From contig CM119374.1 of assembly GCA_051294905.1 (NCBI GenBank), positions 3,720,001 through 3,784,000 of the forward strand: DNA of 64,000 nucleotides, read 5' to 3'. The stretch's first letter is position 1. Each line of letters opens with the position of its first letter. The stretch comes from Botryllus schlosseri. Lineage: Eukaryota. The translations under genes and the position numbers were made by a program. This document shows, piece after piece, positions 1 to 38,699 of this stretch. The notes beneath the pieces are model-generated. The model made no database searches and had not been told where the DNA came from. It was given only the letters and a program-made list of their open reading frames with translations.

Positions 1-27
1 TGTTACAAGCAATTGTATCACATTTAG

Positions 28-159
28 CCGAAATGCCAAAGGTACTGGCCAGAAGCCGGGAAAGAAACATGTTATGGACCCTGTCGTATCAGGAATATCG
101 AAGAGAAGACCTGCGGTACGATTGTGACGACGATATTGAAAGTACAAATCACTGAGCAG
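28..159 (+). CDS. Receptor-type PTP, D1 exon (KCxxYWP motif); gene continues upstream of the window
   Basis: tttag|CCG...CAG|gtgaat; translates PKCQRYWPEAGKETCYGPCRIRNIEEKTCGTIVTTILKVQITEQ, phase 0-0. Confidence 0.9.
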
Positions 160-2772: not shown

Positions 2773-3073
2773 GACTTTCGCGCCCAACTTCTGATGCTTG
2801 TTCGAGAATCCCTCCTCTGAAATGTATATGAAATAGTACAAAGCTTATTTACTTGTTCTCTGTTTTCTGACCAGCCTGCCTTGATGCTGAGCGAAGCTTG
2901 CAGTTTTTTTTTATCTTTTCCAAACCAATTCCTGTTCAGTTGATACAGACTATGGTTTAAGTCATTCAAAACACATGTTCAATGTTTCAAGTTCCAAGCA
3001 GCATTTCACGGACCGCACAGAATATACCATAGATACATATAAATGACAGGATTCTTGGACGCACAGAACTTCA

Positions 3074-3310
3074 ATATACAATTGAATGGTATATTCACAT
3101 TGAAATGAGCCCAAATGCTTCTGGCTGACAGTCGTGAGCGGTAATCGTCAGCACGCCAACTAGTAGAGAATTGGAGAGAACTGTCAACATCAATGATATC
3201 ACAAAATATGACGTCACCAATTCTCTATGTTGCTGACGATTACCCATGACCAGTGTCAGCCGAAAATAATAGGGTTCATTTCAATATGAATATACTATTA
3301 AATTGTATAT
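3074..3310. mobile_element. 237-bp foldback element made of two head-to-head Penelope-like 3' ends, each with a degenerate hammerhead
   Basis: Arms ~3074-3175 and ~3218-3310 are reverse complements; both match the PLE 3' UTR at 25110-25225. Confidence 0.75.
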
Positions 3311-3335
3311 AAATGACTCTTCTCTACCCACTTAG

Positions 3336-9633: not shown

Positions 9634-9769
9634 CGATGGATTAAGAAGAACAGGCATTTTTATCGCTGTTGCGAACATCATCGCAAGAGTGGAGATGGAA
9701 GATCGAATTGACGTCGTTCGTACCGTCAAAGATCTCAAGGATATCCGACCAGGAATGGTCCAAACTCTA
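9634..9769 (+). CDS. PTP D2 P-loop exon
   Basis: tacag|DGLRRTGIFIAVANII...DIRPGMVQTL|gttagt. Confidence 0.92.
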
Positions 9770-14039: not shown

Positions 14040-15483
14040 CTAATACGACGGGTGTGACTGTATTTTGATACTAAATGCTTAACTCTAGGATAAGTAGCAG
14101 AAAATACATATTTCATATCAGATTCACAGTCGAGGTTGTTTCCTGATTTTGTCGTTATATTAACAGGAGTAGAAAAAAACATTTTCACGCAGGTAAGTGG
14201 ATGAAAATGGGAGATGTATGCGGATAGCCACACCACCCACACTCTTGTGAATGTTGATATAATTCTGCCAGAACTCGCTAAGTGGTAGTGCTTCAAATTC
14301 GTCTCTTGCCGTAGAATTGCGAGATACAAGATACAAAAACTCCTCTTGTAAATAGTCCGGACGAATATCCTCGTTCGGGCGAAAGGGATTCCTTGTCATC
14401 TTCCTTTCCGGAACATCGGTGTCATTCGAGTCTGGAAAATAGCGTTCTAATTCTTGTTTTAGAAGTTGAAGGTGACATTTCACCTCGGCTTTGAGCTCGC
14501 CCTTCATTTCATTTTTTTGTCGATGATAGCATCAAGGTTTTAAAATGAAGCCGCATTTCCTTTTTGAATTCGACGATGCTACAGCCCCAATTTTTTGGAT
14601 CGTGGATCGCATCATGGTATCCTTTGCGATTCGTATTCTTCCCTTGTAGGATCAGATTTAAATGATTAATGGCTTGAAAATGTGGGACTTCTTTGCTTTA
14701 TCCTGGCAATGAATCTACTTTGTGATCCAATCATTGCTGGAGCACCGTCAGTTCAGATCCCAACAAGTTTCTGCCATTTCATATCATTGTTATCAAAAAA
14801 TGTGGCGATAAGTTCGAATATATCTTCTGATTTAGTAGTCGTTTCTAAGGGTTTGCCGAATAACATGTCTTCTTCAATTGAGGTATAGGTAGACCCAACA
14901 AAGCGAGCATAGACCATCAACCGCGACAATTGCTGGCCATCATCAGTCGTTTCATCACACTGAATGGCAGAATAAGGTGATGCGTGAATCTTATCTATGA
15001 CACTCAATATCCTCTACGAACTCATCGATGCGTATTTTAATGGTAGGATTAGAAAGAGAAATCGTTGCAAGCTTTTTACTGCTCGCGTTGCCCAACACGG
15101 GCCCAGCTGTTCGTCGCACGCAGGGTTTCACCAACGGTTCGCCAATACTAGGGGTTTCTTCTCCAGGCTAGAGCTATCAAGTAAGCAATTACGAAAGACC
15201 CTTCTAGGAGTTCAGCCGATGGAGATCGGCGAAAGCACTCGCCACTTGCAGCCTTCATTTTCTCAAACGAGGATTTCTTGCTTTGGAAAAAAGAGGCTTC
15301 AATTGATGGACAGAATGTCTTTTTCTTCTCGAAATGACGCTGCAAACGAGTTGGTCTCATCGCGTCTTTCCTCAGATTTTGAAAACATATCATACATTGT
15401 GGAACAACGTCGACCTTTACAATCGTATCTATGAATCCAAATTTCATATAATCGTCGTTATACTGTCTCTTTTTGCTACTCAT
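14040..15483 (-). pseudogene. Decayed hAT transposase of the Buster/Charlie (ZBED5/ZBED8-like) group, internally deleted
   Basis: Fragments MSSKKRQYNDDYMKFGF..PQCMIC..MRPTRLQRH (BED finger), QCDETTD, ICTDGAPAMIG and C-terminal RNPF..LPFSSTYLRE; frameshifts; probable terminus cagcggctctaaacc at 13758. Confidence 0.9.
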
Positions 15484-17467
15484 ACTAGTTCAAGCGAATT
15501 GACGATGTCGATGAAAAATCACGCCAACGCTGCTGCCTACAATAATAATATTACAAAATCAACATGAGCAGAAACCTCGGCGACACTGGTGCAGACAATG
15601 TGGCGTCTGATCCGACAATGTTATTGTGACATCATCGTTCACTATACAACGATACATGATCTTGCGCTTGATGAATGTAAACCACGTAATGCCGTTCATA
15701 AAATTATCCGTTCGCTTGTCTAGCGGAATGTTCTAAAGTACAGAACGTGTAAGTTTGTAACAGTAATCCGATAAATCTTCGGACAGTGCTAGATGGAAAC
15801 AGATAACTTATGCTGATTATGTAAGAAGTATTATTATTCGGAATATTTGTGATCGAACGACTAATTCACAAATTGTTAATAAATTTTGGAGTCAGATGAT
15901 AGGCCTATAAGTTTGAAGATAATAACATGAATATGTGGTGATCGCTGTGTTAATAGTTTGAGATAAATATATACCGGTAGTGACTACAGACAGCACGGCG
16001 TCGTTATGTCTTGCCATGCTAAATTTGACCAGTCTTGGAATTGAATCAAATTGTGTTGATGTAGTGTAGCCTACTTGAGGGTGAAACCGAGTAGCTGATA
16101 TCGTGGGGGTCGGTAACCCCCAGCACGCGTGTTATTTGTGGCGCACGAGATGAATTTTCATGGCACGCCAAATAATTTGACGAACACTACATATTATAAT
16201 GATGTTTGTTGCAAAACATGCAACATAAGATTTCAAAATAGAAGAAGCTAAAATTGTTTGATTAATCAATATAAAACAGTCTTTTTGGGCAGTTTTTAGT
16301 TATCTCGGACATTTTTTCGCGCCCCGCGCGATTTACCATGACCTATAATTTCTTGATTTTGGAAAACCCACAAATATATATGCACAGCAGCCTATAATAT
16401 CGTATGAAGCCGTTTGGATGCTTTGGTCTAGGAGAGTGAACTGTGCCGCCTGTGGGGCCGCGAATATTTTGTATGAACCAGCATTTTGGCGCTGGGCATT
16501 TTCACGCCAGGAGACGCACGTTTCGTACAACATGCGACTGCCTGCGTTGTGTGCGTTGACAAAATGATTGGTGGCAATAAAACATTGAAATATAATAACC
16601 GCCAAATGTTGGCCAAAACGTTCGACATTGATATGTCCACTATCCAGGTGCCGAAATGACCGGCACGAATAGTCCAGCGCCAGCCTCTTGAGCCACACGT
16701 CTAAAATGAGACCCTCAGAGGAAAATAATGAGTCCCGTGTTGAAATGCGAATTTTGAATTGTGTTCATCTCACGAAAGGATATATTGTTTTAGTTATGTC
16801 TGATACGAGTAAGCGATTCTAGCATATTTAGAGCAACGACAACCGTTACCGCTATGCCGCGATCTTTGGAGCTTTGCAGACAAATCTAGTATCAGACGGA
16901 CTTAATAGACACTTACGTGACCTTTGACACGAACCAATCAGGCTGCAGCGGGATGTAAACAAAGAACAAGCCCGGGCAAGCTTACTATGAGCTCTTATGG
17001 GAAAAGGTTGAAAAATGAAGGTTTTAAACAAGATTACGTTGCATTGGGGATGACTGGCTTTAATGAATAGTAATAGCGTAGAACTAGTATGTGGTTGCAG
17101 CTTTTAATCTAGGATGAACATGAATGGTGGCAAGTACGCACCAGCGTGCTGTGTTCAAATGCACGGGTTTTTGACAACTTTTCTGATTAAGCGACGATTG
17201 TTGTATACTATACTATAGGATTGTGGAAATGCATATTTTGACGATTTCATAGGCTCCAGGTCTCGAGCAAAATTTTCAAGCATATCTCATGTTCAGAAAT
17301 ATATATACTATAAAATATAGCTGCTGCCACACATCACAATTTTTGTGTATTGAATATGAAACTTGAAAGCTATGGAGATTCTATCGAATTTATGGATTTG
17401 AGTGGAACAGCATCTTCTTCTAACACCGCGGAGAAAGCTACGAAGTATTTCATGGAGCGCTATGCAC

Positions 17468-18815
17468 CAGTGTTGGGATGACTCGAGTCATGACTTGACT
17501 CGAGTCAGACTCGAGTCAACTTTTTCGTATGACTTGACTTGACTCGAGTCACTTTGCAAAAATGACTTGACTTGACTTGACTCGGTCCTTCAAAAATGTG
17601 GATTGACTCGTGACTCGGAGCAAAATTTACGAGTCAATTTCAAGTCATCATGCAAACGATGTCGACTAAATCAATTTATTTTGTGCATGTTCGGATTATT
17701 CACGATACGCCGTTGTCACTTGTGAGAGCAACCAGTCATTCACTGATTGTATGTTTCACTGATTCTACATTATTACATCACAAATACACTGACCACAAAC
17801 GAAATGAGCACAGCTTGCGTTTTCGTAGTAGCAGATCAATTTAATAGCAATGTATCGCTGTTTATTGGACGGCTTTTTCCTTACATTGCACAACTTTTCC
17901 AACCCTCTTGTATGATTTAAATCGAACAAATATAGTTTATGCGTTTATATTCTCACGGATGTGTATAGATGGCTAGTGTACTATCAATTTCCTTCAACTT
18001 CTCGAGGCTTCGTATTCGATACTCTATTTTGGCTGATAATAAGGGAATGTAGCATGTAGCTCAGAGTTGTCATACTCAACTGACGTCGCGGGCCGGATTC
18101 AAATATTCAGATCACTATCGGGCCGCACCAGTCAAATGATTCCAAAATATTACTAACTCCTAACTCAATATATGCACTTTTTCGCATTCTCTGAATTGGG
18201 TGTCACTGTCAGCGATTTTCTCCTGACGATGACTAGAAATCACAACTCCGCTGTCGGGTGGTTATAATGTGGCCTAAGAACAGACTAGAAATGTGCAATC
18301 TTGAAGTAATATTTATTAGTAGTATTTCATACCACAAATTCGAGAAATGTGTTGGATAAAATCAACCTATACTCAGAATTGCTTCGCGCGGGACCGAATG
18401 AAATTATTTGGCGGGTCGTATGTTTGACACCCCTGATGTAGCTATATACAGTTACTGGCGTATTTTGTTAGCAGTTCTACGCGTGCGTGAGCGATACAAC
18501 GCATTTTTGCATGTATATTTAACTTTATATTCGTTATTTGATTCAAGATATGGACCAATTGATCTCTCTTTTACACAGCTAGTAAAATATAATGAATTTC
18601 AATGATCACTCATACTTCGAAAATCCAATTTGACTTGAATTGTGACTTGACTCGTGACTTGACTTGACTTGACTCGAGTCACCACCAAAAAACGAGTGAC
18701 TTGACTTGACTCGAATCACCTTTGAAAATCGATTGACTTGACTTGACTCGAGTCAAAATGTGCAATGACTCGAGATGACTCGTGACTCGAAGGTAGTGAC
18801 TTGATCCCAACACTG
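17468..18815 (-). mobile_element. hAT-type MITE, CAGTGTTGGGAT family, copy 3
   Basis: 12-bp TIRs; perfect 8-bp TSD ctatgcac. Confidence 0.93.
18062..18435. mobile_element. CAGGGGTGTCAAAC-family MITE nested in copy 3
   Basis: Right TIR gtttgacacccctg, degenerate left TIR; 8-bp TSD atgtagct; absent from copy 2. Confidence 0.85.
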
Positions 18816-19043
18816 CTATGCACACGATTTAGGGATAAAGATTGAGGAGACAATCCACTCTTTTTAGAAGCAATATTCTAGTGAACAGCCAATGTTATGG
18901 CAACTTGCGGAAAAGTGAGATAACACACTCAATGGAAATACACGTTCTCGGAAAATCCATTATTGATTCGTCTTGCACTTGTAAGACAGGGTAAGTAAGG
19001 AAAAAGACATTTTTTCAGAGACTTCTTCAATAGATATTTTAAC

Positions 19044-20626
19044 CAGAGTTGGATCAATTACATTATTTCAGTTCAATTACAATTACAATTACAATTACTT
19101 TCATGCATGTTTCAATTACATTACAATTACAATTACTCCATGCTAAAATATCAAATTACAATTACAATTACAATTACTCCTTGCATGCTTCAATTACATT
19201 ACAATTACAATTACAATTGCTGCTGTTGAACATGTAATTGAATAATCATAAATTCAGCCGTGCTCCTTGACAACCGTAGCGTCGTATTTAACAACAATTC
19301 AAGTCTAGTTCAGATTGTGTAGTAATAAATGCGTTTATGTGCGTACATAGTATGCTATGTAAGATGTCATTGTGACGTAATATAAGCGTGTTTTGTATAC
19401 TCGGTAATTATGGCTCACGTAATTGGAAATGTAAAATGTTATTTACCTAATTTCCTATGGGTTAGGATTAAGGATAGGGTGCAGTATGTCGTTGAAAAAG
19501 TATTATAATATATGCACGTGTTGGATTTGCGTATATAGTATATAATTAAAGAAATAATATTATTTTTATCGAGGGACGTAGGAATTAGGATGAGGAGTAA
19601 AAACAAAACCGTGCTTTGTCAGATAAGACATTATATAATATCCAGTGGTCTGGTTAGTTAGCCAGACGAAGTAACGATGCAGCATCGTGATCTGAAATCG
19701 TATTGTAGATTGCCAACCCACGGATAGATGCGCAAGATGTGATTCACGGATGAATGAACCGACAAACGTACTGCAGAGCCGGCTAAAAGCAGCAAACTCG
19801 GCTAAAAGTAGCAAACTTTGTAGTCCTAGAGCTGGCGATCCATGCGTCCAAATTTGATGCATCTGGTCTTTATCGTAAGCTATTGATGTACTAATTCCGA
19901 AAATACAAAATAAAATCTCGTCAGGGCAATGTAACTGCTCCAAAATAGCCGTTTAGGGCCGACTGTACTGAAAAGTGAGAGCGCTGCAGCAGCATGACCA
20001 CAACAATTACCAATTACGCCCAGCGATTGTTCAAAACAATGCCGATTCCCAGACTTTCACGACTATTTTGGGATGGTACCGTTGCCTGGAAATATACTTT
20101 TATTGCGGAATCAGTGCGACACTAGCTTTCGATTAGGACCATACATATCAAATTTCGACGCTTGGATCGCCAGCTATGGGACTATCAATTCTGCTACTTT
20201 TAGCCGGCTCTGCAGTTCGCTTCTCGGCGTATTCAATGGTGAGTCACGTGTTGCGAATCCATCCGTTGGTTAGTAATCTAAAAATTGTATACAATGGCAG
20301 CCGAGGCCAGCATAGCGGTAAAAATTAAAAAAAACTTCGCCCGCAAGGGCGCAGTCAAGGGCTTCCGCGAATGGATCCACCAAATTCCTTGTCGACATTT
20401 AAAGAGAATGCATTATAAGTCAATTGTTTTATGTTGTGCTTGTCAGGTCTCAATAGCAATTTAATGTAATTGAAATTGTAATTGAGCAAAATTTTTGTCA
20501 AATTACAATTACAATTACAATTACACAAAATAAAAATGCTTCAATTACAATTAAATTACAATTACATTGAAAAATGTAATTAAATACATTCAATTACAAT
20601 TACAAATTACAATTGATCCAACTCTG
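19044..20626. mobile_element. hAT-type non-autonomous element with (AATTAC)n subterminal arrays; contains a nested hairpin element at 19706-20280
   Basis: TIR CAGAGTTGGATCAATT; perfect TSD attttaac; inner inverted arms ~19706-19870 / ~20125-20280. Confidence 0.9.
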
Positions 20627-21099: not shown

Positions 21100-22830
21100 A
21101 TGTTGAATTAGAGTATGCAATTAGTCCATATATATTTGGTTAGTTGTGATACACAATGCTGCATAGTATGACACCAGACAAAATTTTATACTCCTTGATT
21201 CTTCCGATCAGCTGTTCAATATGAATACGTTCTCTCGCCATCTTTCTTGTTGTGGAACAGTCTGGCTCAGGCATTTGAAGGAGTGTAAATCACGTGCAGG
21301 AATATTTAAATCTAGATTCAATTTCTTGATTTCAGACTCAATGGTGAATCCCTTTTCTGCCATGATAGCATTGCCTGGCTCACCATAGCTGAACTCCATT
21401 ATTTTCTTACATTTCTTGTCGAATCCACATATTTAACTACTATTTCGATCTTAAATGCTCCCTGTAAATAGTTCCTGCACAAAAGTAAGTGTACCACAAT
21501 CCATCAATCCTTTCAAAGTTGTATGTGATTTATTGACAGTCAATAATCATTGTAGATTTGAGAAATCATGAATGAATGCAAATGGTGCATTTTTAAGAAC
21601 CACTTATCTACATGGCCAAAACGCGATTTAATGAAGCAGTTACATATGGCTGACCCAATAGTTAAATACTATGCTTACAGCAATACTATAAATTTGACGT
21701 CAGTGGGATAAGTCGGGCAATTCAGAAAGAATTTAATGTAGTCTAGCATAAAATTTCTGCTTCTCCGCATCTTTTGACATTATCATGCTCCTCTGAGAAC
21801 TGAACTTCACTAGCAATAATTGTCCGCCAATTTGTAATTTTCCTGGACAAGTTTACTGTTTTGTGCTTCTATACTTCTTCCAGAAATTTGATTTTCTTGC
21901 GTTTTATCCATCGACTTCCTCTTTCTGCAGCTTCATAAAAGATATCCATCAAGCCTGCACAAAATATATAATATGTTTATTTTACAGAGCAATACTGCTG
22001 TGCAGGCACCTATCAAGGCGTACTCGTCGACTCGTACAACGTATCACCGCTACCAATTTCAACTATTCGTCTCATTATTGAATATATTGTTTTCAACAAT
22101 TTCAATACATTACACACCATCAAGCAACAAAACTGGAGTGGAATAAAATGAGACACACACCAAGTCGATTGTGGCATCAAGTGTGACTGCATTTCAGATT
22201 GGACTCATTTTGAAACACAGAATTGTTTCATCTAGATCAGTGGTTCCCAACCTTTTTGACCTATCGCCCCCTTTTCAAGGTCAATACCGATCATCGCCTC
22301 CCAAATTTTGTGTACCGAAAATTGGGCATACAAACCTGTAATCACCGGCGGGTTGACTAAAAAAAGGGTCAAATTTTCGGCTCGATGTCTAATTTGACAC
22401 ACTTTTGTAACTAAATTTCCGTGGGTTGACTAAAAAAAAATAAAAATAAAAAAATGTCAGCCGTTTTGACGCGTCATCGCCCCCCCGAATCGCCCCCTTT
22501 GTCCATTTTCGCCCCCTTCGTCATTTTCGCCCCCCTAGAACGCCAAATCGCCCATGTTGGGAACCACTGATCTAGATTCTAGATTATGTCACGATTCAAT
22601 ATTTTTGGTACAATAATAGATGTCATTTTCTTAATAAAATGAGAATTCAGATGACTACAAGGAAGTCCACATGCCTTTATCCAGATTTTACATTCTTCCA
22701 TGCATGTCATTGGCTCTGGGAAAGGTAAAAGCGCACACCAGGAACGGTCTGGGTAGCCATCTCCATGTTACGCAGGCTATTAGCACAGTATTTATCCTGA
22801 TAGATACAATACACGAACTAGAACAAAAAA
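21100..22830 (-). pseudogene. THAP-domain + DDE_Tnp_4 transposase relic
   Basis: GVRFY..FPEPMTCMEECKIWIKACG (THAP, ~22665-22780); IIDC; TLKGL..FVQELFTGSI; MAEKGF..LNIP; TRKMARERIHIEQLIGRIKEY; many stops and frameshifts. Confidence 0.82.
22238..22569. mobile_element. CAGTGGTTCCCAA-family MITE with ATCGCCCC repeats, inserted in the ISL2EU transposase
   Basis: TIRs; perfect TSD atctagat. Confidence 0.92.
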
Positions 22831-24755: not shown

Positions 24756-25141
24756 GTTTAAATGATTCACTGAAAATGAGGTTGGATAGTTGGATTTTTC
24801 AGTGCCACAACTTGCTGTCGTCGTTTCAAATTACAATTTCGATTGTAATGTATATGACGTCATGAAGGTACTCACTTTCCGGTCATGAAAGTTATATTCT
24901 CTCTGTTGTCACAATATGCGTATATGTTTGAATTCAGAATCGTTATCCGTTACTTTCACTTTCGCACCTGACGAAGGAGCGGAAAAATCTCGTGTGATAA
25001 ATAAAATAATTATGTTGCAAGTGGACGCTAAATAACGTGTGAGAGCAACCAAGATCTAAATATTTTCTATATCGTCTGCTATCGGTTCAAATAAGAAACA
25101 CGCAATATGGCAGAATTGTATAGTATATTCATATTGAAATG

Positions 25142-25178
25142 AACCCGAATCTTTTCGGATGACGTTCGTCAGGGGTAA
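25142..25178 (-). ncRNA. Degenerate hammerhead at the displaced 3' end of the older PLE
   Basis: ttaccc-CTGACGA-acgtcatcc-GAA-AAGATT-C-gggtt; the stem II closing pair is mismatched. Confidence 0.6.
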
Positions 25179-25225
25179 TCGTCAGCAACTAGTAGAGAAT
25201 TGGAAAGAACATTAGATATCAACAA

Positions 25226-27410
25226 TCATGACACATTTGAATAAAATATTCATTTTATTCCCGAAGCTTTTCGGCTGACCCTCGTCAGGGGAATATCGTC
25301 AGCAATAATGCGAGAATTCGAATAACTATGTTCAGCAACAATATATATCGCTAATTATGACGTCACACAGAAAATATACAAAGTTGGGAAAACGAGAGAA
25401 CTGCAGCGTTGGCATGGAGATAGCGAAGCAAAACAAGTTAATGCGCGATTTTCAAATGATACACAAATTCTTTCTGTTGGCATAGACTAGGTTTGCTCAT
25501 AGTGATGATGGTGGACTCAAGAACAGACAAATGAAATAAATTGCGACCCTTAGCCAATATAGAGAACATGTCCTCGTGATAGTTAGCAGCACACGTATGG
25601 TTTTCTAGTAAATGTTTGCCTATAGAAGATTTTTGACCCATGGCCTGGTTATGTTCAAGAACAAGCGGATTGTTAAGCTGCGTATTTGAGATATAAGATT
25701 TGACAGACGGTTGAATGTGTTCTTTGATACGGTCCTGCAACCGTTTCGAAGTTCTCCCTACGTACCGACAATCACAGTGGCACTTAAATTCATAAATTAC
25801 GTTGCTTTGTTTTATAGCGGGGAGAACGTCCTTTCGCGTTGCAGGAAACATTGGTATCGTGGTAAAAACAACATTGGTTTTCACCGCTGGATAACAGCGG
25901 TAGACTGCTGAAGTTATCTGTTTCTCAAATCGATAAGAAACCGGGCCAATCCAAGGAAGATGAATGTACACATCCCTATTTTCACTAAAATTACTTCGGG
26001 GGTTTCTTCTGGTTTGGTATCATTCCAATGACATAACTTTTTACTTATTGTCCGCTTAATAACATACTCTGGGTATCCGTTGTCAATGAAAATTTTACGG
26101 ATGTAGTCAAGTTCAATATTCAATTTGACCTCGGAACAAATCATCAACGCCCGGTGAACCAAGGTGCCGATTAAATTGATTTTACGACTTTTTGGGCTGA
26201 AAGAGCTCCATCGAAGTTAATGACCCGAAAATGTGGGCTTCCTATAAACGGAGGTAAGGAATTTGCCATCCCGTTTCTCCACAAGAACGTCAAGGAATGC
26301 CAGGCGATTGTTAATTTCTTTTTCCGACGTGAATTGCAATGCTGGATGTAGTTTGTTTAAATTTTCCAGGAAACTATCACAGTCAGATTCATTATCGAAT
26401 ATCACGAACGTGTCATCGACATAGCGATGGTATGATAAGGGCGGTTTAATACAAGAAGAGAAGAGCTTATCTTCATGGAATCCTACAAATATATTGGCTA
26501 GAATAGGACCCAATGGTGATCCCATTGCTACACCATCAGATTGCCGGAACATGATATTGTTGAAACTAAATTCAACAGAACACACAGCGTTTCTCATCAA
26601 TTCAATGAAGGTAGCTCTCGAGAAAGGAGGAGGTATTAGCTTACCGTTATATAGAGCATCAGCGCAAATATTCAACGTCTCATTTAGTGGTACGTTGGTG
26701 AAAAGGCTCTTTATGTCGAATGAGCCTAGGAAATTATCGCGCGGGGATAGCTGTGAGCGACGCATCTCATCAGCGAAGGTAAAAGAATCGCGTACGCAAA
26801 GCGACCCGTAAAGTTCGCGAACAGGTTCCAGTATGTTGATCAACCACTTCGCCAACTTCTGTTGCATTGACCCAGTCATGCTGAGTATCGGTCTGAGTGG
26901 CACATCGTCTTTATGCGTCTTCGGTAATCCATACATACGCGATCTTTGGGAGCCAACAGGCCTGATGGAGTCATATTCTTCAGGGGATATTACGTCATCG
27001 TTTTTCAAGATTCGAAGGCGTCGTTGTAGTCGTCTTTCAGACTTTGCAGTATTGTCGTATTCCGAGACCGGGCCAAGTACAACGAATTTGGAATTATCCT
27101 CGAGAATACTCATCATCTTTGAAACGTAATCTTTCTTGTTTAAAATTACCACGCCAGTACCTTTATCTGGTTTCGTTATGTGAATATCGGGGTTGCTTCG
27201 CAGAGATTTTATGGCACGGAAGCATTCCTTTGTCATCAAGAAATCCGCTTTGTCAACTGGACATCCACAATACGAATGTGCCAAGTCCGTAAGTCTTGCT
27301 TTGAGAGCTGGCACTTCATCGATTGATTTTGCTTCACGGTGCTTCAATTGAGCTAATAGAATCTCAAATTCGGCGAAAACCTCCACACTCTTGACATTAA
27401 TTGGTGGAAT
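25226..27410 (-). mobile_element. Penelope-like retroelement (RT + GIY-YIG endonuclease), 5'-truncated, with one nonsense codon and one frameshift
   Basis: KPDKGTGVV, SFDIKSLFTNVP, GVAMGSPLGP, RYVDD; VIYEFKCHCDCRYVGRT..EH; TAA at 26217-26219, frameshift ~25990, ORF ends 25438. Confidence 0.95.
25256..25295 (-). ncRNA. Minimal type I hammerhead ribozyme (PLE 3' end, left arm)
   Basis: tattccc-CTGACGA-gggtcagcc-GAA-AAGCTT-C-gggaata: 7-bp stem I, intact core, palindromic stem III; predicted cleavage after 25263. Confidence 0.85.
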
Positions 27411-28730
27411 GCAATCTGATGGTGTAGCAATGGGATCACCATTGGGTCCTATTCTAGCCAATATATTTGTAGGATTCCATGAAGATAAGCTCTTCTCTTC
27501 TTGTATTAAACCGCCCTTATCATACCATCGCTATGTCGATGACACGTTCGTGATATTCGATAATGAATCTGACTGTGATAGTTTCCTGGAAAATTTAAAC
27601 AAACTACATCCAGCATTGCAATTCACGTCGGAAAAAGAAATTAACAATCGCCTGGCATTCCTTGACGTTCTTGTGGAGAAACGGGATGGCAAATTCCTTA
27701 CCTCCGTTTATAGGAAGCCCACATTTTCGGGTCATTAACTTCGATGGAGCTCTTTCAGCCCAAAAAGTCGTAAAATCAATTTAATCGGCACCTTGGTTCA
27801 CCGGGCGTTGATGATTTGTTCCGAGGTCAAATTGAATATTGAACTTGACTACATCCGTAAAATTTTCATTGACAACGGATACCCAGAGTATGTTATTAAG
27901 CGGACAATAAGTAAAAAGTTATGTCATTGGAATGATACCAAACCAGAAGAAACCCCCGAAGTAATTTCTCGTGAAAATAGGGATGTGTACATTCATCTTC
28001 CTTGGATTGGCCCGGTTTCTTATCGATTTGAGAAACAGATAACTTCAGCAGTCTACCGCTGTTATCCAGCGGTGAAAACCAATGTTGTTTTTACCACGAT
28101 ACCAATGTTTCCTGCAACGCGAAAGGACGTTCTCCCCGCTATAAAACAAAGCAACGTAATTTATGAATTTAAGTCCCACTGTGATTGTCGGTACGTGGGG
28201 AGAACTTCGAAACGGTTGCAGGACCGTACCAAAGAACACATTCCACCGTCTGTCAAATCTTATATCTCAAATTCGCAGCTTAACAATCCGCTTGTTCTTG
28301 AACATAACCAGGCCATGGGTCAAAAATCTTCTATAGGCAAACATTTACTAGAAAACCATACGTGTGCTGCTAACTATCACGAGGACATGTTCTCTATATT
28401 GGCTAAGGGTCGCAATTTATTTCATTTGTCTGTTCTTGAGTCCACCATCATCACTATGAGCAAACCTAGTCTATGCCAACAGAAAGAATTTGTGTATCAT
28501 TTGAAAATCGCGCATTAACCTGTTTTTCTTCGCTATCTCCATGCCAACGCTGCAGTTCTCTCGTTTTCCCAACTTTGTATATTTTCTGTGTGACGTCATA
28601 ATTAGCGATATATATTGTTGCTGAACATAGTAATTCGAATTCTCGCATTATTGCTGACGATATTCCCCTGACGAGGGTCAGCCGAAAAGCTTCGGGAATA
28701 AAATGAATATTTTATTCAAATGTGTCATGA
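27411..28730 (+). mobile_element. Inverted ~1.32-kb copy of the 3' part of the same Penelope-like element (inverted pseudo-LTR arm)
   Basis: Reverse complement of 25226-26544 with roughly 10-12 differences counted by eye; same TAA at 27736-27738; ORF ends 28518. Confidence 0.95.
28661..28700 (+). ncRNA. Minimal type I hammerhead ribozyme (PLE 3' end, right arm)
   Basis: Identical 40-nt motif; predicted cleavage after C28693. Confidence 0.85.
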
Positions 28731-31700
28731 AGTTCTGTACTCCTAAGCATATCAACAATCGTATTACAAAATATGACGTCACCAGCATGAAATGAGATCT
28801 GAAATAGGAGAGCGTCCAATGTACTATTGTAAGATGGTACGCGTACTCTTTTTGTGGACAAGGCTTGAGCTGATGTAACTTGATAAAGGTCGACTCCAAG
28901 GCACAAAGATTAAAGTGTATGCGGCCCTCCCGATGACGCGAAATCTGTCGTCTCGATGATTTTTCGCACGAGCAAGACTATCCAACAGATGTTTCCCAAT
29001 GGCAGAATTTATGGCCTTTGAACGCTCAGCGTCAAGCTTGAGCGGATGAGTCAATTGAGGGTGAGCTTTTTACAAAACGTGATTCACGTGTTCTCATAAA
29101 TCTAGGCATATGCTGGTTTATGCGTTCCGGCAAATGCTTCGACGTTCTTCCTACGTAGCCACAATAACAGTGGCACTTAAATTCGTTCACTACATTACTT
29201 TGTTGACGGGAGCAGTTGTGTTATCTTAAAATCACGTTGGTTTTCACTGCGTTGTGACACTTGTTGGCCGCGGAAATCAATTGTTTTTCAAAGCGGGTGG
29301 AATAGGACCAATCCAAGGTAGATGGATACAAACAGAGGTGGTCAGTAACGAATTACTTCTACTTTTTGGAAGTACTCAAGTAGTTTTCCTCTACTTCTGG
29401 TACTTACTCAAGTAGATCTCATTTTCTCTACTTCTACTTCTCCTTCGTAATATTTTGTGATCTACTTACTTACTTTTCGCTATTTTCAGTTTGTCAAGTA
29501 GAAGTAGTTTAATACTCCAATATCAAAGATAGCCTGAGGAATTTCGGTGCTGTTTTCACGGAGTACCAACATTAAATTTTCATAAAAGTCAAGTAAAGCC
29601 CAGAAACTTTGTTGCGTTTCGCGCAGAGTAGTTATGAAGTTACAGATTTGTTTTCACGAAAGTCTCAGTGAATATCATTCAGGTACTGGATTGCTTGGTT
29701 CCGCTCATACCGCATTGTCGCCCATACCAAATATTTCATCACAGTAAATATGGCTCACCATAACGTTTGAAACCACCGTTTCGCAATATAGCAATTACCC
29801 ATCATATCGTAATCTAGCAGCCCATGACGTGTCCTGCTAATCTGGAAAGTCCTGCTTTTCTCACGTTGACCTGTTTTAGCATATCAGCTTTGTGGACAAA
29901 AGACATTAAATTTATTTTCCGCTTTTTAGAAGTGGTATCTGTGTTTCACTATCAATTCCGAGTATCATGCTTTAAGTTCTAATTACTTTCAGTTCTTTTG
30001 TCTGCAGAACATACATGTTGAAGCATAAAAGCAAGTGTAGTATTGCCTCTATTTTCCGAAAATAAAGCTACAATAAATATAGATTTTACGATCCACAATA
30101 TTATATTATCAACGTATAATAATCGCGCAAAGTGTTGAAACCGTATCCGATACAACTTCTCCGCATTACTCTTCGCCTAAACTTGGGGTCTTATAATATG
30201 GGGTAGTGCGCCATGCCATGGTGCTCTCTAAAACGCGATCTTCTAGTAAACAAAGAGTTGGTATCGTATTTTCATATCAATACTATAATTTGCATCCCAT
30301 GATGCGAAAGAATGCTTATTCTGTCGAAATTAGATACCTCGTTGGATGCATTATTACCTATCAAGCTATCTGCACCTTCCGCATAGCTCAATTTGCAGCT
30401 TTTGACAGTCCATGCGGACGAATTAAGACTGTTTTCAAAAGTACTTACTTGAGTAGATTTAAAGTCAGTCAATTCTACTTCTACTTCAATTGGTTTCATG
30501 TGGCTTATGGAAGAAGTAATTCTACTCGTACCTGAGTAGATTTTTTTCGTCGCTACTTCTACTTCTACTCGAGTAGCTTTCTTGACTACTTTGACCACAT
30601 ATGGATATAAACATATTTGGTTCTCTATACCGCGGCTGATGACTTTTTCAGGGTAACCGTGAACAATTATGATTTTGCGGATGTTGTCAAGTTCTAAACT
30701 CAGTGTGTTACCCGAACATATCAGAAACGGTAAATGCACGAGTGTGCCGATGAGGTTTATTTTTCTACGTCGAGGGCTAAACGAATTCCAACTAGGGTAT
30801 TTGTTTGTGAATGTCGGTTTCATGAATATATATGATTCAAATTGGTTTGTATTCTGCTTTTCGACTAAAAAGTACAAATATGATATTTAGTTATTGCATT
30901 CTTTTTCTATTGTGAATCGCGAGGTCCGGTTAAGGGAGTTTCGGCGAATGGAAAACTGATCACAATCCTACTCATTCCTGAATATGACAAAAGTATCATC
31001 AAAATATCGACGATACAACAACGGTTTGATGACTCACGCTGGGAAAGAAGCTCGCCCTCTTATTATCCTACGGAAATGTTAGCCTAGATAGGTCCAAGAG
31101 GCGAGCTCATGGCTACGCCGTCAATTTGCCTACATGACATCGTTAAAGCTAAATTGAACGGAGCAGGTTGCGGCCTGTAAGAGTTTAACAGAAACGTTGC
31201 ACGGGAATGGTGGTGGTTGTACCGTGCCGACGTAAAGTGCGTTGACACAACTATATATAGTCTCTTGTAGAGTAACTTTCGTAAAGAGACTAGAGATATC
31301 AAATGAGCTTAGGAACACGTTCGAACTCGACGATTCCAGGCTTGGTATTTTACTAGCGAAAGTGAACGAATCGCGAACACATCCCATGTCGTACAATTCA
31401 CGAAGAGGTTCCAAGATGTCAATGCGCCATTCTCCCAGCTGATGTTGAGCAGACCCGGTCATATAAAGCATAGGTCTCACCCAGACATTTTGGCACTCCA
31501 TGCATGCGTCGGTCTGACAGTGTTGTATATTTTCGCCATCAAGACATCGTTTTTCTTCAACGCCAGCCGGAAGCGTACCACTCGTCCTTCAATATTTAGT
31601 GTGTTATCGAATTCCGAACCGAACTTAGCGTGACAAATTTGGTTTTTGTTTCGGAGTAAGTCTGGGCAAGCCGACCATTTTTAGTATCAGCCTATCGATT
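28731..31700 (-). pseudogene. Older, decayed Penelope-like element of the same family, split by a MITE and by the palindromic PLE
   Basis: VRPMLYMTGSAQHQL, FLSSFDISSLFT, GVAMSSPLGP, KPTFTNKYPSWNSFSPRRRKINLIG, IHLPWIGP, SAIGKHLL, ESTFIK..QKEYAYHL; many lesions. Confidence 0.88.
29333..30603. mobile_element. hAT-type element with TACTC/AAGTAG subterminal repeats, inserted in the old PLE
   Basis: Ends cagaggtggtca / tgaccacatatg; TSD gatacaaa/gatataaa; PLE homology resumes on both sides. Confidence 0.78.
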
Positions 31701-33357
31701 TTTGAGCTGGACATCGGAACATTTTCAAATTGCAAATGAGGTCCCGACTAAAAATACTGGAAACCACCCGATGTGCATTCTGCTGGTGCATTTTATAGCA
31801 ATATATAGAAGAATCGATATCATTAACAGAACTCATTCACAAAATTAACATTTAGATACATATACTAACCCCTCAAGGAGTTGGATCGATAACCCTACGG
31901 TGGGACCAAGACCAGTGCTTTTTTGGGCGTAAAGGGACTGAACAAATGTTGTTTTTGACATGGTTAGAACACAGAAGCAGATAACCGCACCTACCGATCG
32001 GATACAGTTCGCCAGACAATTTCATCCGGCCCGTTTTGAAATCTGTTGTAGACCCACGCAATCACCATAGCTCACATTGAAGATAACCCAAATCAGAACC
32101 AATGTTTTACTCCACTCCTGTATGCAGTCGATAGACGAAGTAGTTTTGCTGGTGTGACGTGATATTGAATGTAAATGTGTTTATAACTTCTTGTAAACCC
32201 CGCTAGTAGGCGCTAAAGAGTGTCAAGAGTTTGAGCCACAAAAATATGGTAGCTGATAGAGTTGAGGGGGGGGGGGGGCTTCAACAAATTTGGCGCATAA
32301 TTAATGATGATAGGTATTCGGGTATTTACTAATCTATTGTTGCATGTTGCAAGTCCAGTAACATCATTCATCCGATTTTAAATTGGGATTTCTTCAACCG
32401 CCGCATTATTTTTCTCTCGGGTACGCATTAGTAGGCCTACGTGGGGCTCAGATTGCACGGAGTCTAATATATTGAAATCGAATAATCAACTGACCGCAGA
32501 ACGGTCACCCCTGATGTATACGATTTATTAATTTGGTGGCGAAAGTTGTCAACAGATGTTAGATTAATGGTTATCAGTGATTCATATGAATTGTTGTTTT
32601 CTGGCCGTTTTGCTGGGTTCATACAGCAGCATTCCAACTCGTACGCAAACATCACACTTTGATCATAACATTTCCATTCTCTGCCTAAACTCGTAAAGCT
32701 ATTTGTGTGTCGAATTTATTTCATTGTAGTATCATTGCTAGCAGATTCTTCGTCCGTATACGGAATTCACATTGAAATGAACCCCAATATTTCAGCGGAC
32801 ACTCGTCCGGGCTAATCGTCACAACTAGTAGAGAAATGGAGAAATCTTAAGTATATATGAGAAGACCGAGGACAGTGTCAACGAGACAAGATCGAACAAT
32901 GTCCCACCGGTCGTTGACGCTAGGTCAGGGTTAGGGTCGTTTCGTCTACGGCAAAACTGTATTTTGTATCGCATAGCACAACGTGTGCTTAGAGAGGATG
33001 ACATAAATAGAACCTAAGTTTACAACTATGATTGTCGTGGACAACAGATTCTCTTCTCTCATTTTGTGGGGTCGCGAAAACAATGTGCATGGGGCTTAAC
33101 TATTCCGCCACATTATCGACAAGACTTCCACAACATACCGATGTCCTCGACTCTATCGCCTGCTTCGCTAGGTCATTTATGGAATGAGCAACACATACTA
33201 AGACCAGATCGATACTCCCTGCGCGTATTCAATTACCCAGTAATCGTACGGACTGGCCCCCAACTCGAACATGAAAAGGACTCGCATATATGACACAGAT
33301 TTGTGAATTCAGGATTTTATTACAGGAGATATATTTCTGGTCGTATTAGCAAGTTGT

Positions 33358-33893
33358 TTATTCAACTGAGCGGCAATATTTCATGACGATGCCCCGTTGA
33401 ACGTTTTTTATCGTGCCGAACATGTTAAACCTTGTCAAAACCATACCGCCTAGGATGACAGCGATGCATACCGATAGGTTACCAGCATCTATTCCTAACT
33501 CCCGATAGAATTCATCAGAATCAATCACAGCTACGAGATATATAACCCCGAATATAGGTTGGACTGTTAACGTTGCAAACCCAAGACAGGCAATATACAA
33601 TGCTACGGTAGCGCGCAATGAGCCCACCGCCCGCCTCAAGTCATTTTCGTCTTTCCGGCTCAATCGCAATTTGATGTCATGAAGATCTGGCGTGATCGGC
33701 AACCGTTGAAGGTACATCAAACAGAAAATGCATAACAGAATAGAAGTAGAAAATATTTGTGATGTCGGTTCGAAATAGCGTGGCCAAACGAAAGATGCGA
33801 CGAAGAACTCTACGGTCGCGATGAAGCCGGTTACGCACACCACCACCTGACCCTCTAGATCACGTAGGTCGGCCTTGCTCAGGTTAACCAGAT
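33358..33893 (-). CDS. Unrecognised four-TM protein, paralog 1, terminal exon
   Basis: ttgttacag acceptor, phase 1; 177 further codons with four hydrophobic segments, ending KYCRSVE; AATAAA on - at 33316-33321. Confidence 0.78.
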
Positions 33894-34360
33894 CTGTAAC
33901 AAGAGTAAGATAAGGGCGTGTACCTTCACAGGGTATACGCCCTAGCCTATGTAATACATGGTTCCGGTAATACTACAGCCGAATGCATCGAATTACAGAA
34001 GTTACCGCCTGCCGTAAATCAGACGGGTCTCTGAGAGCAATGCTACGTCGTCTCCAATCTATTTACCATTCCGAGATCGCAGAACGGAAAACATGCTAAC
34101 GGAGTGAGTGAAGAATTTTCATCAAGAAAATGGACCTAAGCTAGGACGAAAACGCCAAAAGCGGTTACATGCATCAACACGCAAACATTGCCCGAAAACC
34201 ATAACGCTTCTGGTATATAAATAGGCTACTATATTATACGAGGTCTGAGTGAATAGGCCCCTATCATTACATATTTCTTCTAATCCAATCATGCCTATGT
34301 GCACTTTAATGACATTGAAGTGTGGGAAGGGAGCAGTTGATGTACTGTCTGCATCATCGT

Positions 34361-36361
34361 GAGAGATAGAGAGAGTCCTTATTTTCATCAAACCAAAATA
34401 CATAACACACGGCAGTGGTGGTGGTACAGAAAATATACATGCACAGTATTCGGTATTAGATAGGAATGATCGATAAGACCGTGAAGGTCATCTAGTCTGA
34501 TCACACCAGCATCAAACAGGTACACTTGACTCTAAACCAGTGGTCGGGAACCTTTTGCGTCTGAAGAGCCATATTGGCCCTATATTTTCCATTTCAACCC
34601 CAAAGAGCCATACATGTCAATCCAATATTACGTCACAATTGAAAACGATGACGTCATCATAACACTTATTTGAACTCACTACATGCCCTAGTGTGTGTCA
34701 CATTTTCTCTGTGTGTCACATGCGAAACTTGAGTTACATAGATCCTTTGCTAGTGACATCTTTTTAATTGTATTACAATGAGAGCCATATGATATTTTTC
34801 GAAACTTTGAGACAACTACCATTTACAAAAGATGTAGACAACAGTTAAAGTGGTGTTAATCTACTTTCGTCAGTTATACCATCGTAGGCTCGTCTTGGTG
34901 CTCCTTTTTAATGTGAGGAGTGAGGACCCATGATCACACGCGTAGGTGGAGCCGAAAATGGTCACTACAGCCGTACACACCCACTATACGTCGGTGTGGC
35001 AAGTGAGGAATTGCATCGGTATTTTCTATCGACGTGTATGAATGACCAGATTTTGAACATTTTTACTCCCAAGATCACACTATTTTCATATTTATTGTTC
35101 GAAAATAAAGCGCGAAAGGGAAGTAAGGCACACGTGAAGCTCACACGGGCCGCATAGGTGAGGCCACAAGCCACAATCAAGCCTAACCTATGATAGCGCA
35201 ATTCATCATAAATAGCTTGTAATTGATAAGAATTATTAGTAATCATCGAATGCAACTGCTCTGAAAATATAAATATTGATCGACTTCTCAATTCTCAAAA
35301 TATTCGAACATCATTTTGCGCAACACGCCTACATTTTAACACCGGTACTTACAAAGCTACTTACTAATCAAGAACATGGACAGTGGACACTGAAAGCTAA
35401 GACGTCGTTTGTAATTTGAATTTGTTCATTTCTCGCTGTATAGATCAGAAAGACAATGTTTATTTGAAGCCTGTATGACAATTCAGACGCCGCGATGCCT
35501 GGTATTCTCTTTGATCATTTGATCAATCAACATATCGTGCAAATTTGAGATCTCAAAGCGTACGATGTCGGGTGCGGCGAACTCGCGAGTGACATTGTTC
35601 GCCGGCGCGAAAGCAACTTGAATTTTGCGATTTTGAAAAGGGTGCCCGTCTGCCCGAACCCCTAACACTGAATACGCCACTGTCTTGACCAGTCATGTTT
35701 ATACAGCCACAAGCATAATTGTTCTGGTCCAAGGAAAACATGCCAAGAAGTCGTCAAGTTGCTGCAATATTGATAAATTAAGTACAAAAATCAATATTTG
35801 ACAAAGAGCCATATACTGTACCCAAAAGAGCCATATATGGCTCGCGAGCCATAGGTTCCCGACCACTGCTCTAAACAGTCTGGCTGTAAAAAATGTTACA
35901 AAAAATGTTACAGTAGTTAAAAAAAATAGAGAAAAAAAATTAAACGATGGTAGCAAATGATCAATGAAGCGATGTCTGGGCGAGGTATAGGGCAACAGTG
36001 TTAGTGTAACGACAAGAGGTGATTAAGTAGGGCTTTTTTGAATCTATTATAGGGCAATTCACGGATATGTGGTGCTTATGCGTTCCAGATGATAGGTCCC
36101 GAGTAGTCGATGGACCTCTTAGTTGAGTTGCTATTGGGTGGGGGTAAGTAGATATTTCCTTTAGACGAGGATCTCGTGTAATGGGAGTGGACATTTTTAG
36201 CAGGCATGAAAAAGTCATCAAACACAGGAGGCAAACTATTGGAAAATTATTTGTGAATGACTTTTGATACTTCGAAGCGATATAGGTCGTCAACTTGCAC
36301 AATTCGGTGCTTGCGGTAGTAAGGCGATAGTTTGGTACGTAAAGGTACAGATGAGATCAGC
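34361..36361 (-). mobile_element. 5'-truncated CR1/L2-group (Crack/Daphne-like) LINE with a nested MITE
   Basis: C-terminal tail ~36001-36350 (VDDLYRFEV..HSHYTR..YSGPIIWN..FKKALLNHL); CT/CTAT tail at 34361; absent from the paralogous site ~46633. Confidence 0.75.
34538..35868. mobile_element. CAGTGGTCGGGAACC-family hAT element with GAGCCATA repeats
   Basis: TIRs; perfect TSD ctctaaac. Confidence 0.9.
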
Positions 36362-36705
36362 CGTATGCCTTGATGATGGACATGCAATCGGTCGGTTTGG
36401 TGTTCAGGTCTGTAACAGTACCATTTCCCTCTCCACGCAACCACAGTGTGACATTGGGCGCTTAACGGGAAGGATACGAGTTTTTCGAGCATTCATTAAT
36501 TAGATTCGATTGGGGTTCTAACCTATGAACTACAGATCGAGAATTGAACCCTCTGCCGCTTTCCCTCATTCCGGCATGTACTGACTCATTTCAAATTCCA
36601 ATAAAGGGAGCTTCATAAGAGGAAGTTCCCGATCATTGATCATACATGCAAATTAACTGTACACTCTCGCACGCTCGGTCAAATCCGCGATATCAAAAAT
36701 CTTAC

Positions 36706-36751
36706 CTTTTGGAGTCATATACAACGCTTTGAACAGATGTACGCGACCCAT
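36706..36751 (-). CDS. Probable first coding exon of paralog 1 (MGRVHLFKALYMTPK)
   Basis: 111-nt exon 36706-36816 with tag acceptor and gtaaga donor, phase 1 matching the terminal exon; conserved in paralog 2. Confidence 0.55.
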
Positions 36752-37023
36752 AATGACAACCGGCACTGGATCAACACCTCGACGCCTATTTTACTAATAC
36801 CGGATAACACGAACGTCTATAATATAAGTTACACGTAATGGCGTCACGTCAACTCGTGTAACCTACCGGTCAACTAACTGTCTCATTCAACAGCACCGAT
36901 ACCAAGTCCTACGCGAGTTCATTTTTGATATTAAGCAATTATTAGACTCGACGGCCAGAACCTATCACCTCGGAAATTCAAAGGTTGAAACCGATTGCAT
37001 TGATGATGCAGTATACTGTAGTG

Positions 37024-38699
37024 CAGAGGTCTCAAACTCAAATGTGCTCGCGGGCCAATTCCTACTTTTTGACGGCGCCGCGGGTCGCAGCACCAATAAT
37101 AGGGGAATTCAAAGTAGGCCTTATTTCCGGGTTTCGAGCATAGGCCTACTCCTGATAACTATAGGCTATATTGATCATGTCGTTACCAAAGTCAAATAGA
37201 ATCAGCGTTTGATTTTACCTTCGAATGTTGGAACAGGTAAATAACAACTTGAACATAATGGATATACTGTGCCATAGCAATAGAAATCTGCAATCGCCGA
37301 AGAATCCATTGGTGTTACAGCTGTAAAGCGTAGGCTACGACTAGTTAGTACTCGCCACATTAAATTGGCGACAATGACATATATAATGATACCCAAGATG
37401 ACACAGGATGTATTCAACTATACATCAAAGAGGTAACATGATGCCAATGGCGTTTGCCATACCTGCTTAGATATCTAAATAAGCTACGCAACGCAAGCTG
37501 CCACCTTTTGATATTTTACCATTTCTCATACCAGTTTTCATAGTTTGTTCATAGTGTCCTGTATGGTGTGGACACAAGCAAATCACACGGCTCAGTGAAA
37601 TTGGTCTACGTCACACTTTTCGTTTGGTCAAAGGAAATTTGACTGTAATTTTTGACCGGCTTGTCCAGCATTAAATTTGATAAAACGGGTATCGATGGGA
37701 AGAAACCGGGGGTGCAGACTAGATGACCTTACTATGAAGGCCGTATCGCATCTCCGTCGTCAAAGCATCTCGATGGTGCAGGCGAAAAAGAATACCACAT
37801 CTCTCTCTCTATCACCGTACTGATTGCGAAAATATTTATTTTATTCTGGTCGTGTCCCTGGAACTCTCCAAAATAAGCCTCGAATGTTGTATTGTAAGTG
37901 AGTTTGGTATTGTGACGCAACGATGCCGTCTGAGCAGCTCAGGAGCAACTGTGCATGAGAGTGAGAGTGTGAATGCTCAATCGCTTGCGCAACAATGGCC
38001 AATACGCTTGCAGCTTGCGGTGCTCCTCACCTGCTCCCAGACGTAATTGCTGCGTCACAATACCAAACTCACTTACAATGCAATATTCGAAGCTTATTTT
38101 GGGGAGTTCCAGGACCACGAGCAGAATAATTTTATATTTTCGCAATCAGTATCGCGGTAGCTTTCGATTGATACCCGTTTTATTAAATTTCATGCTCGGC
38201 AAGCCGGTAAAAAAATACAGTCAAATTGCATTTGACCAAATGGAAAGTGTGACGTACACCAATTTATCTGAGCCGTTAGATTTGCTTCTGTTCCCACCAT
38301 ATAGGACACCATGGTTTGCTGCGTGCGTGGTTGCACCAAGTCACAAAAGTCCTTCTCTGATTGTAACGTAAGTAGTACTCGTGAGTGATTCTACAGAAAG
38401 TCGCGCCCTAGTCCAAATCACAATTTTCAGTCACGAATCATCAACGGGTCATGTTTTACGATCATAAACAAGTAAAGTCACGTCATAGTTGATCTTCCAC
38501 TGCGTGGTAATTTTTGAAAGTGATGTATTAGTGAAGTTTGATGAGTAGTTTATTCAGGCTTCTGGAGTAGTTTTACAGCGAGTTGCAAGTTCTCAAGTTA
38601 AAAAAAATTAGAGTTCAATATTGTCGAATACTTCGAAATCCAAAATGCCGTCGCGGGCCGCACAAAATGGTCTCGCGGGCCGCGTGTTTGAGACCTCTG
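37024..38699. mobile_element. CAGAGGTCTCAAAC-family non-autonomous hAT element (1676 bp) with an inner hairpin element ~37808-38160
   Basis: TIRs; perfect TSD ctgtagtg; empty site ctatagtg in the paralog near 47291. Confidence 0.93.

Follow-up and report, generated by a model that had tools for sequence, protein, structure and literature searches.

Two head-to-head, 5'-truncated copies of a Penelope-like element in a single Botryllus schlosseri insertion

A 64,000-nucleotide stretch of the Botryllus schlosseri genome (GenBank assembly GCA_051294905.1, contig CM119374.1, positions 3,720,001 to 3,784,000 of the forward strand; hereafter the window, to which all coordinates refer) contains a Penelope-like element (PLE) present as two 5'-truncated copies joined head to head. 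One 12-bp target-site duplication (TSD) encloses both copies, which were acquired in a single insertion event, and the insertion is a young and dead one of known layout, from a family without a close match in the protein collection searched. We consider it somewhat better than an even chance that it represents one retrotransposition of an endonuclease-bearing (EN+) PLE, dead on arrival, in which both nicked target strands primed cDNA synthesis at two adjacent sites on the element RNA.

Structure and identity of the insertion

The window is eukaryotic, repeat-rich, and about 40% GC, and among the 51 inverted pairs found in it none approaches the pair at 25226-28730 in length or perfection. Alignment of the arms (25226-26544 and 27411-28730) gives 1319 aligned pairs, with nine substitutions and one single-base indel in 1320 columns (99.2%), and the arms, their coordinates, the match of ~99%, and the 866-nt spacer are all as reported in an initial annotation of this DNA. 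All ten differences fall within the outer 763 nt of the arms and the inner 557 nt contain none (p=0.004 for identity at that position; p=0.045 for an equally long run anywhere). The features of the insertion and its target are as follows, with strand and the basis of each call.

25100..25215, minus: 3' end of an older related PLE, with its pseudo-long terminal repeat (pLTR) and a decayed hammerhead; 75% over 100 nt
25216..25227, plus: left TSD, 12 bp, its last 2 nt overlapping the left-arm end (2-nt microhomology); exact word search
25226..26544, minus: left inverted arm; inverted-repeat search and arm alignment
25226..27413, minus: long 5'-truncated copy, residues ~188-841 of an 841-aa relative, 3' untranslated region (UTR), and pLTR; alignment
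25438..25800, minus: GIY-YIG endonuclease region of the left arm, both Cys intact; Pfam and motif reading
25986..25988, minus: frameshift private to the left arm, in the linker between reverse transcriptase (RT) and endonuclease; arm alignment
26217-26219, minus, and 27736..27738, plus: premature TAA common to both arms; translation against relatives
26545..27410, minus: 866-bp spacer with the N-terminal conserved region, PDKG, and first RT motifs; RVT_1 match (E=3e-10) and alignment
27411..27413, no strand: head-to-head junction, a probable 3-nt overlap assignable to either copy; F-C-x-P-P motif of the long copy, compared with relatives
27411..28730, plus: right inverted arm, equal to the short 5'-truncated copy, residues ~478-841; alignment to the 841-aa relative
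28158..28518, plus: GIY-YIG endonuclease region of the right arm, natural stop at 28516-28518; translation of the open reading frame (ORF) and relatives
28731..28748, plus: 18-nt one-sided tail; in-frame continuation of the repeated ORF start
28749..28760, plus: right TSD, 12 bp; exact word search
28761..31744, minus: body of the older decayed PLE, with 3' UTR, endonuclease (28819-29316), and RT (30590-31744)

The minus-strand frame of the spacer encodes an RT (PF00078, RVT_1), and of 4133 longer candidates 1040 score as relatives at E<=0.001, the best of them being 55-67% identical and mostly ~840 aa. The PDKG motif upstream of the RT is invariant in 13/13 aligned sequences, and the coding content of the spacer stops just short of the QxDGVAMGSP motif. 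The spacer had been annotated as the N-terminal half of the RT, which agrees with PDKG and the early RT motifs within it, but it does not include the N-terminus of the ORF, a median of 189 upstream residues being missing from the long copy (89 of 120 relatives scored). Each arm contains the C-terminal part of the RT, the thumb, a GIY-YIG domain, a 184-nt 3' UTR/pLTR, and a hammerhead-core motif; the annotated content of the arms is therefore present as to RT C-terminus, GIY-YIG, and 3' UTR, while the annotated ribozyme corresponds to a hammerhead-core motif with no Rfam match. The GIY-YIG domain of the left arm matches PF01541 with E=2e-4 and 22.1 bits, slightly below the 22.6 cut-off, and a Pfam search of the right arm with PF01541 gave no match. 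The CCHH motif of the left-arm endonuclease is complete, with both His and with both Cys, the latter between GIY and YIG, and a CX2-5CxxC zinc finger in the RT-endonuclease linker is absent from the query and from 120/120 relatives.

These features bear out the identification as a PLE, together with an element 3' end that repeats the start of the ORF and continues into a one-sided tail, as is characteristic of a pLTR, and with the 5' truncation and short TSDs of EN+ PLEs. The insertion is best fitted as an EN+ PLE with a Penelope/Poseidon-like domain layout, a clade assignment made by motifs alone, because it combines PDKG, a C-terminal GIY-YIG with CCHH, and no linker zinc finger (as defined by Craig 2021, PMC8557442). 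The query lacks the features that define the Neptune and Nematis clades; Naiad and Chlamys require an N-terminal endonuclease, which is C-terminal here, and the Hydra clade has a DKT motif and no CCHH, where the query has DKG and CCHH. A same-family copy was sought among 4133 and 6843 protein candidates scored and none exceeds 69% identity, the best relatives in this collection reaching 67% when the whole query is aligned and 69% for a partial match.

The long copy starts at residue ~188 and the short copy at 478 of the 841-aa relative, confirming that an inverted 5'-truncated copy is present and adding that the long copy is truncated too. An arm spans 43% of the ORF (residues 478-841), and not most of it as had been claimed. 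The shared premature TAA falls on a Tyr conserved in 116/120 relatives and retained in the older PLE nearby; an alternative genetic code is rejected, as the natural end of the ORF, which matches the C-termini of relatives, is also TAA. Private to the left arm are a Pro>Gln change and the frameshift, and to the right arm Ile>Thr and a Cys>Ser change at the first Cys of CCHH (Cys in 116/120 relatives). Only one of six coding substitutions between the arms is synonymous, and this, with derived changes in both arms, agrees with neutral decay. An autonomous copy would have an intact ORF and an upstream pLTR; here ~189 residues are gone, the shared stop and a frameshift interrupt what is left, and the insertion is without a 5' pLTR. 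As judged from its reading frames, neither copy is able to encode an intact protein and the insertion is dead.

The 12-mer of the TSD is present exactly twice in the window, and so long a common word arose by chance in 2 of 3000 random 40x40 pairs. With the TSDs outside it, the insertion runs to 28748, beyond the end initially placed at 28730. The additional 18 nt continue in frame from the repeated ATG at 28703, reading MNILFKCVM to the end of the arm and then KFCTPK in the tail. The combined translation, MNILFKCVMKFCTPK, matches the N-termini of relatives such as MKLLFRVILKFCTTNH and MNYLLIAIFKFCTTNQ, and relatives start M..LKFCTT. The pattern K/R-F-C/S within the first 40 residues occurs in 22/120 relatives overall, many of which are partial proteins, and is common among the nearest ones. 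By this coding match, the 18 nt at the right end are a one-sided PLE tail. Within the repeated ORF start the two 3' ends lie at different positions, the tail-less left end at +26..+28 and the right end at +46..+48.

At the head-to-head junction, bases 27411-27413 form the Cys codon of the F-C-x-P-P motif of the long copy. In relatives of at least 60% identity this residue is Cys in 15/16 and the preceding residue Phe in 16/16 (16 of 36 cover the site, 20 do not), while across all 120 longer relatives only 33 have Cys at this position. The relatives thus point to a likely 3-nt overlap of the two copies, or 4 nt if the Phe codon ended in T.

The insertion site, as read from the flanking sequence, is in the 3' UTR of the older, decayed minus-strand PLE (25100-31744), which is ~67-80% identical to the young element in matched pieces; PLEs are described as tending to insert into or beside other PLEs (PMC6765202). 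When the flanks are joined without the insertion they align unbroken to an independent paralogue at 3049-3217, and none of 2000 shuffles matched that paralogue as well as the right-flank part. The linker of the older PLE is itself split at ~29334-30600 by a ~1.25-kb insert that has short inverted ends, is bordered by a near-perfect direct repeat of 10 bp, and resembles a non-autonomous DNA transposon. The older PLE family has left another 3' end at 32750-32860 (minus), where the hammerhead region is likewise decayed.

Origin of the head-to-head arrangement

We propose that the GIY-YIG endonuclease would have nicked both target strands 10-12 nt apart, and that each 3'-OH would have primed RT on the element RNA, the two using different but adjacent internal start sites. 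Synthesis of the cDNAs would then have halted after ~2.2 and ~1.3 kb and annealed via the 3-4-nt overlap, with the gaps filled in. Either the template already bore the stop or one arm may later have overwritten the other, and a stop already in the template would mean that the protein was probably supplied in trans from an intact copy; mobilization of PLEs in trans is reported by Arkhipova 2013 (PMC3846280). Both copies would have decayed neutrally after insertion, at a locus presumably without a function of its own. The tail is element RNA sequence, because it encodes the family N-terminal motif and has no counterpart in the left copy, and the left copy as it stands is unable to template the right tail, which counts against a plain fold-back. 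A purified Poseidon PLE, predicted to be a dimer, is reported to cleave and extend both strands and to begin RT at a pair of neighbouring internal sites separated by the length of the tail (Frangieh 2024, PMC11167929).

The same pattern recurs in the window:

3037..3317, no strand: independent 280-bp miniature that shares the layout, with a head-to-head pair of pLTR ends

The miniature is built from pLTR ends of the older PLE family and is flanked by an 11-bp TSD (11/11 identical). Its one-sided tail, at 3048-3072, encodes LKFCASK and is homologous to the 18-nt tail; its tail-less end lies at +21..25 with a 4-nt target overlap, the other end is at about +49..51, and its junction overlap is 3 nt as judged from the older paralogue. 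The arms are alike at 77/100 columns. With its two end positions, 11-bp TSD, and 3-nt junction overlap, the miniature lends support to two-ended priming. It is located in an intron of a tyrosine-phosphatase gene, making its transcription probable; the exons of this gene (28-9811, plus) encode two phosphatase domains (seven ORFs match PF00102), as in receptor-type phosphatases.

Several points weigh against priming from both strands. In Frangieh 2024 (PMC11167929), start sites did not differ between the strands and target homology was not seen. The identity of the inner 557 nt is not predicted by two-ended priming without conversion or consensus smoothing, and the shared stop is most simply explained if both arms come from one molecule. 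The junction overlap rests on relatives of only 60-69% identity, and no same-family copy was present among the protein candidates scored (best 67% full, 69% partial). A literature search for twin priming in inverted Penelope copies returned nothing on PLEs and one for gene conversion between Penelope inverted arms nothing on point, as judged by titles and the openings of abstracts; the subscription literature is mostly outside the coverage of both, so this is not proof of novelty. A more specific version, in which the tail, shared defect, identical block, and overlap record, as a genomic fossil, how a PLE dimer copied a defective RNA from the two nicked strands simultaneously, and the family hammerhead has a 2-bp stem II perhaps braced by a 6-bp pseudoknot, is tentative and on present evidence rather doubtful.

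The foremost alternative is self-priming fold-back, in which the cDNA folds at the 3-4-nt overlap and copies itself, and asymmetric endonuclease resolution of the resulting palindromic DNA leaves one tail; fold-back is the explanation favoured by Arkhipova 2013 (PMC3846280), and tail formation by resolution is proposed in PMC8557442. It traces the stop common to both arms, and the lack of differences in the inner 557 nt, to a single molecule, and the junction overlap fits it equally well, but the 18 nt of ORF in the right arm are absent from the left copy and would demand extra trimming or deletion, in two independent insertions. There is also no palindrome at the junction, and the arms of the miniature are alike at only 77/100 columns though its TSDs match at 11/11, a weak hint of two templates whose chance we put at about 0.06-0.13 by hand arithmetic, a value biased by the manner in which the TSD was found. 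We regard fold-back as unlikely, if a serious contender. A hybrid of the two processes, in which both strands prime and the long cDNA folds back over the inner ~560 nt before annealing to the short cDNA, would make the right arm a mosaic and predicts exactly what is seen: an identical inner block with the shared stop, a divergent outer block, and a one-sided tail. However, the outer differences resemble decay in both arms and not variants of working copies, and the same picture would arise by chance (p up to 0.045), from smoothing of the consensus, or from gene conversion after insertion; we find the hybrid quite improbable.

Rearrangement at the DNA level, either inverse duplication of a single copy by repair or recombination or two insertions at one spot, would be in keeping with the near identity of the arms and with the reported tendency of PLEs to land in or near one another (PMC6765202). 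A single perfect TSD pair bounds the whole unit, though, no flanking DNA is duplicated, and only one of the two sides has the tail, which consists of element sequence, making such a history very unlikely. Least probable of all is a library foldback chimera or misassembly, for which it can be said that six of the nine arm substitutions are transversions and that they are clustered, possibly reflecting read errors in hairpin-forming sequence. Such an artefact would mirror the flank, and the direct 12-bp TSD with the older PLE continuing beyond it argues against this, as do the unbroken alignment of the joined flanks to the paralogue at 3049-3217, the coding tail, and the derived changes in both arms. 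The initial annotation had likewise favoured a genuine structure, a judgement that now stands on firmer ground.

The hammerhead-like motif and possible RNA products

Each arm contains one copy of a hammerhead-like motif close to the repeated ORF start:

28661..28700, plus: type-I hammerhead-like motif of the right arm, with a 7-bp stem I, core from 28668, 2-bp stem II, and palindromic stem III
25256..25295, minus: identical motif of the left arm, with the repeated ATG at 25253

The predicted cut follows 28693, 10 nt before the repeated ATG at 28703. A hammerhead descriptor has two matches in the 64 kb, one per arm, against 0.13 in each simulated window (0.03 at this stem length; n=60), while an Rfam scan of the whole window returned no match at E<=1 and the minimum free energy fold of the region is not a hammerhead. 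The extra nucleotide before 10.1, the G10.1-C11.1 pair, and the palindromic helix III are all present, as in the PLE hammerheads described by Cervera 2014, in which helix II is 6-8 bp and not 2 bp as here. Among six aligned copies, 89% of 74 cells are paired (13-47% when slid), with no compensatory pairs and no covariation above that of shuffles, so that the alignment does not support the motif independently. A possible 6-bp pseudoknot between loop II and the sequence upstream of stem I (28653-28658 with 28677-28682) can be formed in most of the six copies, with no compensatory change. From these sequence features the motif is likely to be real and is a candidate ribozyme. Both copies run past the predicted cut, suggesting that the templates were uncut, as in Frangieh 2024 (PMC11167929).

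Perfect partners in the left arm are found for 1129 of 1300 right-arm 21-mers, and a read-through RNA would therefore form a long duplex with a 1.3-kb stem. Small interfering RNA (siRNA) from long Penelope inverted repeats is reported in Drosophila (Evgen'ev 2013, PMC3681739; PMC3136932), and its production from the locus at 25216-28760 is plausible but would require read-through. No host exons flanking the insertion were found in a Pfam scan of ORFs of at least 45 aa in 1-25200 (148 of 217) and of at least 55 aa in 29300-56000 (80 of 122), a scan that short or unannotated exons would escape; its only matches are phosphatase exons, none of them beyond 9.8 kb, one DDE fragment at 21.1 kb, and, below cut-off, three weak ones. 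A segment duplicated at 33317-39095 and 45582-47687 (83-92% alike in matched blocks, spacing 8.6-12.3 kb) contains two 204-aa hydrophobic minus-strand ORFs, with a single weak Pfam match below cut-off, which face the palindrome from 4.6 kb and could supply read-through. Cruciform formation, which had also been suggested, is unlikely across an 866-bp spacer if data from yeast, in which hairpin-linked fork arrest is reported to vanish, and structure-linked effects to fall steeply, above a spacer of ~8 bp (PMC8053094), are carried over to this locus; a stem-loop in RNA or in long single-stranded DNA is possible.

Other repeats and comparison with known systems

Several other repeats are evident in the window. 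An LTR retrotransposon at ~56077-60620 (plus) encodes protease, RT, RNase H, and integrase in the Gypsy-type order, with terminal repeats 98% alike over 190 nt and an ORF interrupted by stops and frame changes. A DDE_Tnp_4 fragment is at 21140-21289 (minus; E=6e-5, below cut-off), and ORF pieces at 14160-15489 (minus) resemble a decayed DNA transposase by eye, with no Pfam match. A dispersed family that includes short tandem units as well as inverted copies (89-94% alike) is found at 1803-2770, 4205-5277, and 17467-18816 and is probably similar to miniature inverted-repeat transposable elements, and older imperfect inverted repeats (78-88%) with 100-450-nt spacers are at 37550-38313 and 19703-20283.

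The proposed origin of the PLE insertion invites comparison with LINE-1 twin priming, in which the second target strand primes a second cDNA and the pieces join by microhomology. In LINE-1 the second primer anneals at an internal position and the two pieces share little sequence, whereas here synthesis of both cDNAs would begin from the 3' end and produce an inverted duplication of 1.3 kb.

There are published precedents for inverted truncated copies, for one-sided tails, for inverted arms of kilobase length, and for siRNA derived from Penelope inverted repeats. Craig 2021 (PMC8557442) describes an inverted 5'-truncated copy with a one-sided tail as typical of PLEs, and the layout is the same here in having that copy at the 5' end, a tail at one end, CCHH, and DKG, with a tail (18 nt) shorter than the 30-40 bp given there. 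Close parallels are found in the rotifer Adineta vaga, where Arkhipova 2013 (PMC3846280) reports head-to-head ends, 9-10-bp TSDs, ORF-start tails, in-frame stops, action in trans, and insertion into another Penelope; of these, the head-to-head ends, one-sided tail, in-frame stops, and a target that is another Penelope are common to the insertion here. The ORFs of Pen2a, Pen2, and Pen3 are 838-842 aa, against 836-852 in our relatives, and the A. vaga pLTR includes 12 ORF amino acids, or 22 with the tail, against 9 and 15. The tail is 18 nt here and 31 there, with no junction palindrome here, and, comparing layout and not sequence, the insertion differs from the A. vaga elements in having no direct 5' pLTR, no full ORF, and truncation of both copies. 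Table S1 of the same report lists a 2.6-kb opposite-strand coding segment (Pen3 1886-4500) beside a full copy on scaffold_35, which weakens the initial claim that the arm is unusually large; its 1.3-kb length is itself correct. Rearranged Penelope copies of Drosophila virilis likewise have long inverted repeats (PMC3681739, PMC3136932), and siRNAs are reported to map to inverted regions of that element in transformed D. melanogaster. If read through, the locus here would be one more PLE siRNA source of the Drosophila sort.

The importance of this insertion is modest; what it offers is a clean record, made in nature, of a transposition step that Craig 2021 (PMC8557442) calls still undefined. 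The TSD and the interrupted host sequence alone suffice to separate such loci from assembly foldbacks, and if the dimer-fossil proposal is true, young inverted copies in this genome could decide between two-ended priming, fold-back, and the hybrid. The two independent insertions in one window match the in vitro two-start-site result for a lizard element of an unrelated family, Anolis Poseidon PAc (PMC11167929). As in PAc, two adjacent RT start sites in the ORF start would set the tail, and the targets are AT-rich; both strands of the PAc target are nicked and extended with the template uncut at the hammerhead, and we read the present insertion in the same way. The systems differ in position, the RT start sites being ~111-118 nt into the ORF in PAc and at about +27 and +47 here, and the hammerhead cut 26 nt after the ATG in PAc and predicted 10 nt before it here, and also in the short target overlaps seen here, unlike in PAc as described in that report.

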